Shown one piece after another: positions 46,863-52,952 of a stretch of DNA of 64,000 nt; within the stretch, counting starts at the first letter, position 1, and each line of letters begins with the position of its first letter. Source of the DNA: Phyllosticta citribraziliensis (lineage: Eukaryota); assembly GCF_038025025.1 (NCBI RefSeq), contig NW_027117343.1:1984001-2048000 (forward strand). The letters run 5' to 3'. A program made the position numbers and the translations under genes. The notes beneath the pieces are model-generated. The model made no database searches. It saw only the letters and a program-made list of their open reading frames with translations, and was not told where the DNA came from.

Positions 46863-48076
46863 CACACGACTTTTTTCCTTCTCGCTGCGGCGTCTTGAAG
46901 TGTACGATTCGCGGACAGAGCTTCTTGATGATTTTCCTTTTGACTTGCCGGTGGCGTTTGGGCGGTCATTTTGCTTTGCGGCTATCAGCATTCATCAACC
47001 ACATTTCGTTTCCGTCCCCGTCCTATCATGACTTGGCAACATCAGACGCAGCCCTGTGCCTCGACTCCTCGGTGTATCCCACGTCGTGTAGTGCGTCTTG
47101 GCACCACCCGCTATGTGCGCCGCCACAGGGATGGCATTCCTTGTCAAAAGTCGGGGGTGTAAGCGCGGGATGAAGCAGTCAAGTCGCGACAAGCATCCAA
47201 CTGGGAAGACACCCCTTAGCCTCATGACGCCTCAGCTTGCGCGTCGACTTTGTACTGTAGAGCAATGTCCAAATGCAAAGTGCTTTCGCGCCCATGACTT
47301 GCTCGACGTTGAGACAGACTCGTGGAAGCAATCAAGCTTGAACAGCCCTCTCTTTGCTCTTTCTCAGGCTTCGCGCGGATCACCTTTGACTTTTTCCCAT
47401 CCAGAAGAAATTGACACCAGCAGAGTCAAAAAGAAGACCTCATCAACCACAGCCGTTTAGACGAAAATAGAAACAAGCACGACCAAGAACCACTGCAATA
47501 GTCGCAATCTCCCCCAGAACGAGAAATGGTCGTATTGTAGAATGCGCATCTTGGAAGACGGACGAATTGAATTTAAGATGGCAACCATGTTGTGGAAGAG
47601 CGCGGATGCAGAAGAGGTCCCGGAAGTTTTGGTGAGGCAGCTCAGCGTCTCGGCGTTTCTGTTCCACGACTTGACCGAAGCGCATCATCCACGAAACAGG
47701 TAGTTTTCTGCGACAGGACGACGTACCCCGAAGTGACGGTGGAGCTGGCGTGTGAATCGTATTTTTGCGCTGTAGAGGCAAGCAGAGATCAGTCGAGGGA
47801 CATCGCGGGCATGGTGTTGGTAAAGGGAGCCGCCTAAGCGAGGCCGCACACGCCGCCCAGGAAGCCGATTGTTGAAACCATCACGAACTTCGCGCCTCCA
47901 ACCCATCCGCCTCATCCACAACTCCAGGTACGCCAGCGCCCCTGCAACCACCTGCCCGATCGCGCGCTCGTCGTCAATCGCTCGCCGCCGCCCGTTCGTC
48001 TCACTTGCTCGCCTGCTGACGTCGCTTTTTGCTGCTCTAGCCCTCCCAACCCTCTACTCTCACCCAACCCGCAATC

Positions 48077-48839
48077 ATGGATCAGGCGAAGCTCGCGCGG
48101 ATGCAGGCCTCTGTGCGCATTGGTACGTTGAATTCCGGCTCTTTACAGCCAAAATCCAGCCTTGGAGCACTGTTTCACTCAATGAGAGCCCCGCTAATAC
48201 GATGACGTGAACAGGGTAAGAAGCTCCTACAAACTCGCATCACATTCCACTCTGGACTGCAAAAACACCCTTTTCCGACACCTTTCATCTCGGCCACTCG
48301 ACAGGATGGGATAGCTAATGGTTGTTGTACAGAGGCAAGGGTACTCCGCGCAGGAAGGTCAAGAAGGTCCACAAGAGCGGTGGCACTGACGACAAGAAGC
48401 TCCAAGGCGCTCTCAAGAAGCTGAACGTCCAGCCCATCCAGGCGATTGAGGAGGTCAACATGTTCAAGAGCGACGGCAACGTCATTCACTTTGCGGCTCC
48501 CAAGGGTGAGTGAATGGCCGTGGTTCCACGGATGCATCGGACGCGTCCAAACCCTGCTGTGGGGCATGTCACTCACACGCTGCAGTTCACGCCTCGGTCA
48601 ACGCCAACACCTTTGCCATCTACGGCAACGGCGAGGACAAGGAGCTCACCGAGCTCGTCCCCGGCATCCTCAACCAGCTGGGCCCCGACTCGCTGGCATC
48701 GCTCCGCAAGCTCGCCGAGAGCTACCAGAACCTGCAAAAGGAGAAGGGCGAGGGTGACGAGAAGAGGGACGACGACGAGGACGACATCCCCGACCTCGTC
48801 GAGGGCCAGAACTTTGAGGGCAAGGCCGAGGTCGAGTAG
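48077..48839 (+). CDS. EGD1: Nascent polypeptide-associated complex subunit beta (BTF3), 157 aa; exons 48077-48122, 48215 (1 nt), 48333-48505, 48586-48839
   Basis: '[126 protein letters not shown]' is NAC beta. Confidence 0.97.
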
Positions 48840-49351
48840 ACGAGTCACATCGTGCTAGGGTTGGCGGAATAGTCCATAGCAGCGGATGTACGAATGGGGT
48901 ATCATCATCTGCTCGACGTGTGAGATTGCTTCCTCGGACTTGCTTGGGAAAGTTGAGGCGACGGGAAAAGCACCACGAATTCAAATCCTCGTTCCAGTCA
49001 TGTACATGTAAACTTGAGGATGAAGCCGTGTCGGCAATGACGCGCCGTCTCGTTGCTGGGACGTTATGAATTCAAATGATTCGGTCCATTATGTTGAGGT
49101 TGCCGAAGAGGTGATCCATCAGTTGTCGATTATCGTGACTGCACTACTCTACGCCAGGAATCATCTCATGGATTCGCATGTCTCAGCGAACTGGTGGTGA
49201 GGTCAGCCGGTCACGATTTGCAGCCGATCTAATCAATCTTATCTCCTTCCCTGCCCAATCAAGTGCTCGACGCGAACCGAACGCGTCCGCGTAACCTCCC
49301 GCTCTCCATACAACCTCTCTACTCTGCCCGTACCCAGGGCTTCTGCCAACC

Positions 49352-52952
<3,601 letters not shown>

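Follow-up and report, generated by a model that had tools for sequence, protein, structure and literature searches.

Evidence for a single-nucleotide exon between two introns of the NAC-beta gene in a Phyllosticta-like ascomycete

One-base exons in other genes and the layout of the NAC-beta locus

To our knowledge, exons of a single base have been documented in a mere handful of genes. The closest known systems are the following. The Arabidopsis gene APC11 contains a constitutive 1-nt exon between two GT-AG introns, for which intron definition and removal of the introns one after the other were argued (Guo and Liu 2015, PMC4674806). In Fusarium, the CYP621A P450 genes contain a single-nucleotide exon in an AG-G-GT setting, found in 20 orthologues within the genus and described as the first fungal case and the second altogether (Nelson and Syed 2026, PMC12940212). 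A long-read re-annotation of Coprinopsis cinerea counted 13 exons of 1 nt in 13 genes (PMC12230235). Two arrangements of another kind are the stwintrons of Pezizomycotina, the model of which also features intron positions 1 nt apart (Fekete, Flipphi; PMC5587772), and the zero-nucleotide recursive splice sites of long animal introns, which are mentioned by Guo and Liu (PMC4674806).

The locus studied here lies in a window of 64,000 nucleotides, the whole stretch of DNA that was analysed, and all positions refer to it. The features of the locus were assigned as follows:

48077..48122, plus strand: coding part of exon 1, ATG to ...CGC ATT G, 46 nt with a phase-1 end; transcript contigs cover 48043-48122
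48123..48214, plus strand: intron A, 92 nt, GTACGT donor and ACAG acceptor; zero depth in 4/4 runs (bins 48154-48323)
48194..48198, plus strand: CTAAT branch-site motif of intron A, branch A 17 nt before the acceptor (sequence scan)
48215..48215, plus strand: single-nucleotide exon G, the middle base of the Gly codon G|G|A; 209 letters removed around it in transcripts, G in 63/63 regions
48216..48332, plus strand: intron B, 117 nt, GTAAGA donor and TACAG acceptor (sequence and transcript contigs)
48315..48319, plus strand: CTAAT branch-site motif of intron B, branch A 14 nt before the acceptor (sequence scan)
48333..48505, plus strand: exon 3, A GGC AAG GGT ... CCC AAG G, with a phase-2 start (sequence and contigs)
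48506..48585, plus strand: intron C, 80 nt, GTGAGT...CAG; 80-letter skip in 3/4 runs
48586..48839, plus strand: coding part of exon 4, stop codon TAG at 48837-48839; the transcript extends past 48950

The sequence-only reading had placed introns 48123-48214 and 48216-48332 around G48215, and on the sequence these coordinates were found to be correct to the base. Inclusion of G48215 gave a coding sequence of 474 nt with an open frame of 157 codons, while translation of the model skipping it ended after 45 codons at a stop lying 81 nt upstream of the last exon junction, in agreement with the frameshift that had been predicted. In a sequence scan G48215 was the sole AG-N-GT of the region, and before splicing neither donor B (GTAAGA at 48216) nor acceptor A (CAG at 48212-48214) is interrupted. 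The following properties of a single-nucleotide exon were present at this position: one base kept, AG before and GT after it, flanking introns with their own signals, and a frame broken without the base. Two single-intron models also keep the frame, one using the AG acceptor at 48333-48334 (IGKGT, 156 aa) and one with the donor moved four bases to 48127 (IGTGKGT, 158 aa). Local alignment shows that neither of introns A and B is a copy of the other (score 13; shuffled mean 8.8, maximum 16), and no Rfam match fell in the introns when 47900-48900 was scanned at E values up to 1.

The 157-aa product of the one-base-exon model was identical (157/157 residues) to an NCBI entry from Phyllosticta citribraziliensis (P0001) named putative nascent polypeptide-associated complex subunit, a species placed by taxonomy look-up in Botryosphaeriales, Dothideomycetes. 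This entry carries Pfam PF01849, from which the NAC-domain assignment was taken via the identity, and together with the N-terminal RIGGKGT.RRK stretch it identifies an NAC-beta (EGD1, BTF3) protein. Because of this identity, the correct protein is already present in at least one public annotation. The locus is very probably an EGD1/BTF3-type NAC-beta gene of a Phyllosticta-like ascomycete, the second exon of which is the single base G48215, with both flanking introns constitutively removed.

The likeness to Fusarium CYP621A is close, since both cases are found in Pezizomycotina and share the AG-G-GT pentamer, a G as the middle base of a conserved Gly codon and a phase-1 to phase-2 joint; CYP621A is backed by SRA reads and was missed by automatic annotation (PMC12940212). 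However, CYP621A is a rarely expressed P450 of unknown role, whereas NAC-beta is a highly expressed housekeeping gene in which the layout was found in 63 regions assigned, approximately, to five classes. APC11 differs in being a plant gene, in having A (A333) as its exon and in having been tested by reporter constructs, whereas the NAC-beta exon is known from sequence and contigs (PMC4674806). The Coprinopsis cinerea cases are, like the present one, fungal 1-nt exons found from transcript data, although in a basidiomycete (PMC12230235). Stwintrons resemble the NAC-beta locus in having two U2 introns at one place and two splicing reactions, but in a stwintron a splice motif of the outer intron is split by the inner one, with no base left between the two, whereas here both introns are complete and one base is kept (PMC5587772). 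A stwintron reading was rejected, as donor B and acceptor A are intact in the unspliced sequence and the region has a single AG-N-GT. At the ratchet points of apparent long introns, an acceptor directly abuts a donor and the intron is removed stepwise; no base is kept and the first splicing step regenerates the donor. The NAC-beta locus, in contrast, keeps one base and has its second donor complete beforehand, and a zero-length recursive site was rejected because one G lies between acceptor and donor and is retained.

Features lying outside the coding region were also observed. A candidate 5'-UTR intron of 112 nt is located just upstream of the ATG (47928-48039), with a GTACGC donor, CTGAC at 48016-48020 and a TAG acceptor. 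The contig of run X2 carries 11 loose letters equal to 47911-47921 and continues with sequence from 48035 on, and this corresponds to the canonically spliced form of the candidate intron with one mismatch; the contigs of X1, X4 and X9 begin at 48043-48052. A 5'-UTR intron in a relative is likewise suggested when the database protein P0027 is compared with the metagenomic locus L035. The next downstream gene has its ATG at 49353 (window 49353-49475), and its reading frame apparently meets a GTAATT donor near 49470.

Transcript contigs and related loci

Four sequencing runs (X1, X2, X4 and X9) were mapped to the locus as assembled contigs. Run X9 is RNA on record, from a plant metagenome; X1, X2 and X4, which carry three different organism codes, are RNA by guess. 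In each of the four runs one contig joined 48122 to 48332, skipping exactly 209 letters (92 + 117), that is, 209 of the 210 bases of 48123-48332 were removed and one was retained. The depths of these four contigs were 3023.8, 7, 6.31 and 32.5, and their joints had 50-80 letters on the shorter side. No second type of joint, and so none skipping 206, 210 or 212 letters, was present at this place among the contigs of the four runs, and the 209-letter skip in all of them excludes every single-intron GT-AG model (206, 210 or 212). Since the depth over 48154-48323 was zero in 4/4 runs, the contigs represent spliced transcripts, and the empty intron bins in X1, X2 and X4 argue for RNA despite their guessed status. 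The X9 contig had 15 listed exonic differences from the window and the same 209-letter junction. As to half-spliced forms, intron depth was zero in the four runs, assembled contigs being uninformative on intermediates.

The mRNA carries exactly one G between ATT-G and A-GGC. The RNA junction has a one-letter ambiguity, and from RNA alone the retained G could be 48123, 48215 or 48332; the choice of G48215 rests on its having the sole canonical splice sites and on conservation. The exon 1/exon 3 junction had been named beforehand as the place to look, and the contigs of all four runs carry the predicted G there. The mRNA encoding IGKGT through the GAG acceptor, named as the outcome that would speak against the exon, was found in none of them (no 212-letter joint). 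A second contig of run X2 (depth 30.6) connects 48491 with 48604 of the window through 32 letters of other sequence, and is most simply explained as the spliced NAC-beta transcript of another, diverged organism in that run.

Related loci were obtained by scanning metagenome contigs with the exon 3 peptide. This gave 300 relatives, the best 80 of which, all at least 89% identical in exon 3, were fetched; by this choice more distant groups are unsampled, and Sordariomycetes and Eurotiales genomic DNA fall outside the sample. In 77 of these loci a pattern search located the exon 1 peptide upstream. Two others, L041 and L070, in which just 128 and 14 bases precede exon 3, were left out of the layout count, and L050, also missed by the pattern search, shows by eye the same layout and an extra intron inside exon 1. 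In L050 (positions 160-581) this additional intron splits exon 1 after ...GCT CG, with the one-base exon layout downstream. The distinct exon 1-exon 3 regions numbered 63, namely the window and 62 metagenomic ones.

In all 63 regions exon 1 ends in ...G followed by GT, and AG plus one base precedes the GGN-AAR-GGN codons of exon 3, so that the same mismatch of phase 1 and phase 2 is universal among them. The internal AG-G-GT was present in 63/63 regions versus 7.3/63 expected from mononucleotide shuffles in which the outer splice sites were kept, and is therefore not due to chance. The profile at this site was Y-A-G | G | G-T-A-(A/T/C)-G-(C/T). The sequence-only reading had proposed a Gly codon G|G|A assembled from three exons and a search for AG-N-GT in orthologues; the 209-letter skip in 4/4 runs and the layout in 63/63 regions bear out the former, and the latter returned AG-G-GT throughout. 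A CTRAY motif was found 5-45 nt before both acceptors in 59/63 regions, a strict match being absent from intron A in L019 and L059 and from intron B in L039 and L051. The counterparts of intron A were 61-475 nt long (median 98) and those of intron B 68-252 nt (median 133), with intron A reaching 475 nt in L032 and L046. The intron sequences are otherwise diverged among the regions, and apart from the splice signals the profile of the 63 regions showed no conserved element in the introns. Intron C (median length 88 nt) was found in 59/59 regions in which exon 4 was located, exon 4 not being found in the other 4 of the 63. Its retention makes that of introns A and B unexceptional for an NAC-beta gene, with no special selection shown.

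Splicing of the two introns and alternative explanations

In the preferred reading, two ordinary U2-type GT-AG introns flank G48215, both with a complete set of donor, branch site and acceptor, and their removal gives an mRNA composed of ATT-G, G and A-GGC, encoding a conserved stretch of eleven residues. Fungal introns are recognised across the intron. Since acceptor A and donor B share a very short stretch of sequence, there would hardly be room for two spliceosomes at once, and introns A and B are most likely removed one after the other, as was argued for APC11 (PMC4674806). Either order of removal would yield the same product, because neither splice site needs the prior loss of the other intron.

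The contig junction is formally compatible with one non-canonical intron of 209 nt, running from 48123 to 48331 (GT..CA) or from 48124 to 48332 (TA..AG) with the internal AG-G-GT unused, given the ambiguity of one letter and the listing of the ends as GT..CA. Both pairs of ends lie outside the known spliceosomal classes, however, and such an intron would leave unaccounted for an internal YAG|G|GTA.G that is invariant in 63/63 regions despite otherwise diverged introns, a branch motif before the internal AG in 61/63 regions, and a total length about twice that of intron C (medians 98 + 133 versus 88). This explanation is considered very improbable. A true model with one canonical intron, through the acceptor at 48334 or the donor at 48127, could be thought of as well, since each of these models keeps the frame and is represented among the database proteins (5 and 24 of 136 named entries, respectively), but it needs a skip of 212 or 206 letters and the 4/4 runs show 209. 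Equally, a base missing from the assembly, which had been named as a possible refutation, is opposed by the same phase mismatch in 63 distinct regions and by the 209-letter skips in 4/4 runs, which together rule out an assembly error. Taken as one alternative, a single canonical intron or a missing base can practically be dismissed.

A different question is whether the one-base exon has been kept because its skipping, with removal of 210 nt, would produce a frameshifted, NMD-sensitive transcript that tunes the NAC-beta level, as had been suggested at the outset. An early stop upstream of the last exon junction makes a plausible NMD substrate, which is the situation created here when G48215 is left out, and the layout does not vary across a broad range of fungi. 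On the other hand, the 210-letter skip occurs in no contig of the four runs, though contigs drop rare forms; intron C is kept in 59/59 regions, so the persistence of introns A and B needs no special function; and neither a conserved intronic element beyond the splice signals nor an Rfam match was found. The proposed switch thus gained no support and is regarded as unlikely, and constitutive removal of two introns around G48215 remains the preferred reading.

Database proteins and taxonomic range

Proteins listed by two homology searches (214 in total) were sorted by hand into 136 organism-named and 78 unnamed entries, and the exon 1/exon 3 junction was distributed among them as follows:

RI-G-GKGT, as in the RNA: named 16/136, unnamed 31/78
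One Gly short: named 5/136, unnamed 0/78
One extra residue after G: named 24/136 (T 9, I 7, H 2, E 2, and A, N, D and K 1 each), unnamed 0/78
Longer insertions at the junction: named 63/136, unnamed 7/78
Exon 1 peptide absent: named 25/136, unnamed 40/78
Downstream motif absent: named 3/136, unnamed 0/78

The RI-G-GKGT form was thus found in 31 of the 38 unnamed ORFs with an exon 1 peptide, and these 31 lie on contigs of at most about 3.4 kb. As the ORFs are uninterrupted where genomic loci carry about 230 nt of intron, we infer that only spliced RNA can be their source. Among them, P0027 (contig of 944 nt) matched the genomic locus L035 in 57/57 and 85/86 residues in exons 3 and 4, respectively, and L035 has the AG-G-GT layout.

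Gene finders unable to place a 1-nt exon would mend the frame otherwise, leaving scattered wrong junctions in database proteins. The fifth and sixth bases of donor A are GT or GC in 60/63 regions, so a gene finder can begin the intron four bases later and reach phase 2. With such a shifted donor (GTNN|GT or GC), the extra codon is made of donor bases 3-4 and the base after the last acceptor. This rule predicts I for L043 and T for L063, matching the named proteins nearest to them, P0046 (Pyrenophora teres) and P0091 (Knufia), respectively; for the window it predicts T, and the contigs show that this form is not made. Closely related Aspergillus entries read G, GT and GI at the junction, which points likewise to mis-modelling. 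For Aspergillus fumigatus three different N-terminal models have been deposited (P0166, P0175 and P0184), none with RI-G-GKGT. It is therefore probable that many of the NAC-beta sequences in public databases have a wrong N-terminus or contain an insertion that is absent from the real protein. Because the one-residue insertions obey the simple rule given above, annotation pipelines could detect and correct them by applying it.

The taxonomic range was estimated by scoring the loci against 60 organism-named proteins, from GKGT onwards only. The nearest named proteins were from Epicoccum nigrum (145/146), Ophiobolus (143/144), Pyrenophora teres (141/144), Oidiodendron maius (128/138), Letharia columbiana (138/149), Knufia peltigerae (134/141) and Sphaerosporella brunnea (134/145). 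By taxonomy look-up the nearest relatives span Dothideomycetes, Leotiomycetes, Lecanoromycetes, Eurotiomycetes and Pezizomycetes, that is, five classes of Pezizomycotina, the class of each metagenomic locus being approximate, as it was taken from the nearest named protein only. If the class placement holds, the arrangement would have arisen before Pezizomycetes and the other classes diverged. The one-base exon layout appears to be old and fixed. A much wider proposal would have the one-base exon present throughout Pezizomycotina, model fungi included, from the base of the subphylum, and kept as a two-step splicing checkpoint in which a failed step or a skipped G leads to decay, coupling NAC-beta output to spliceosome capacity. 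This proposal is highly speculative and judged improbable.

The NAC-beta exon is a further case of the already published class of one-base exons known from Arabidopsis, Fusarium and Coprinopsis, and an unusually widespread one. A one-base exon in NAC-beta, EGD1 or BTF3 was not found described in the literature searched, which consisted of full texts with few subscription journals. What sets the case apart is how widely it occurs, that its host is a housekeeping gene, and how much public mis-annotation it accounts for. If fixed across a large part of the filamentous ascomycetes, as it appears to be, it would be the most widely conserved one-base example found, and the highly expressed, universally present host gene would offer a convenient natural substrate for studying how the spliceosome handles an exon too short to bind.
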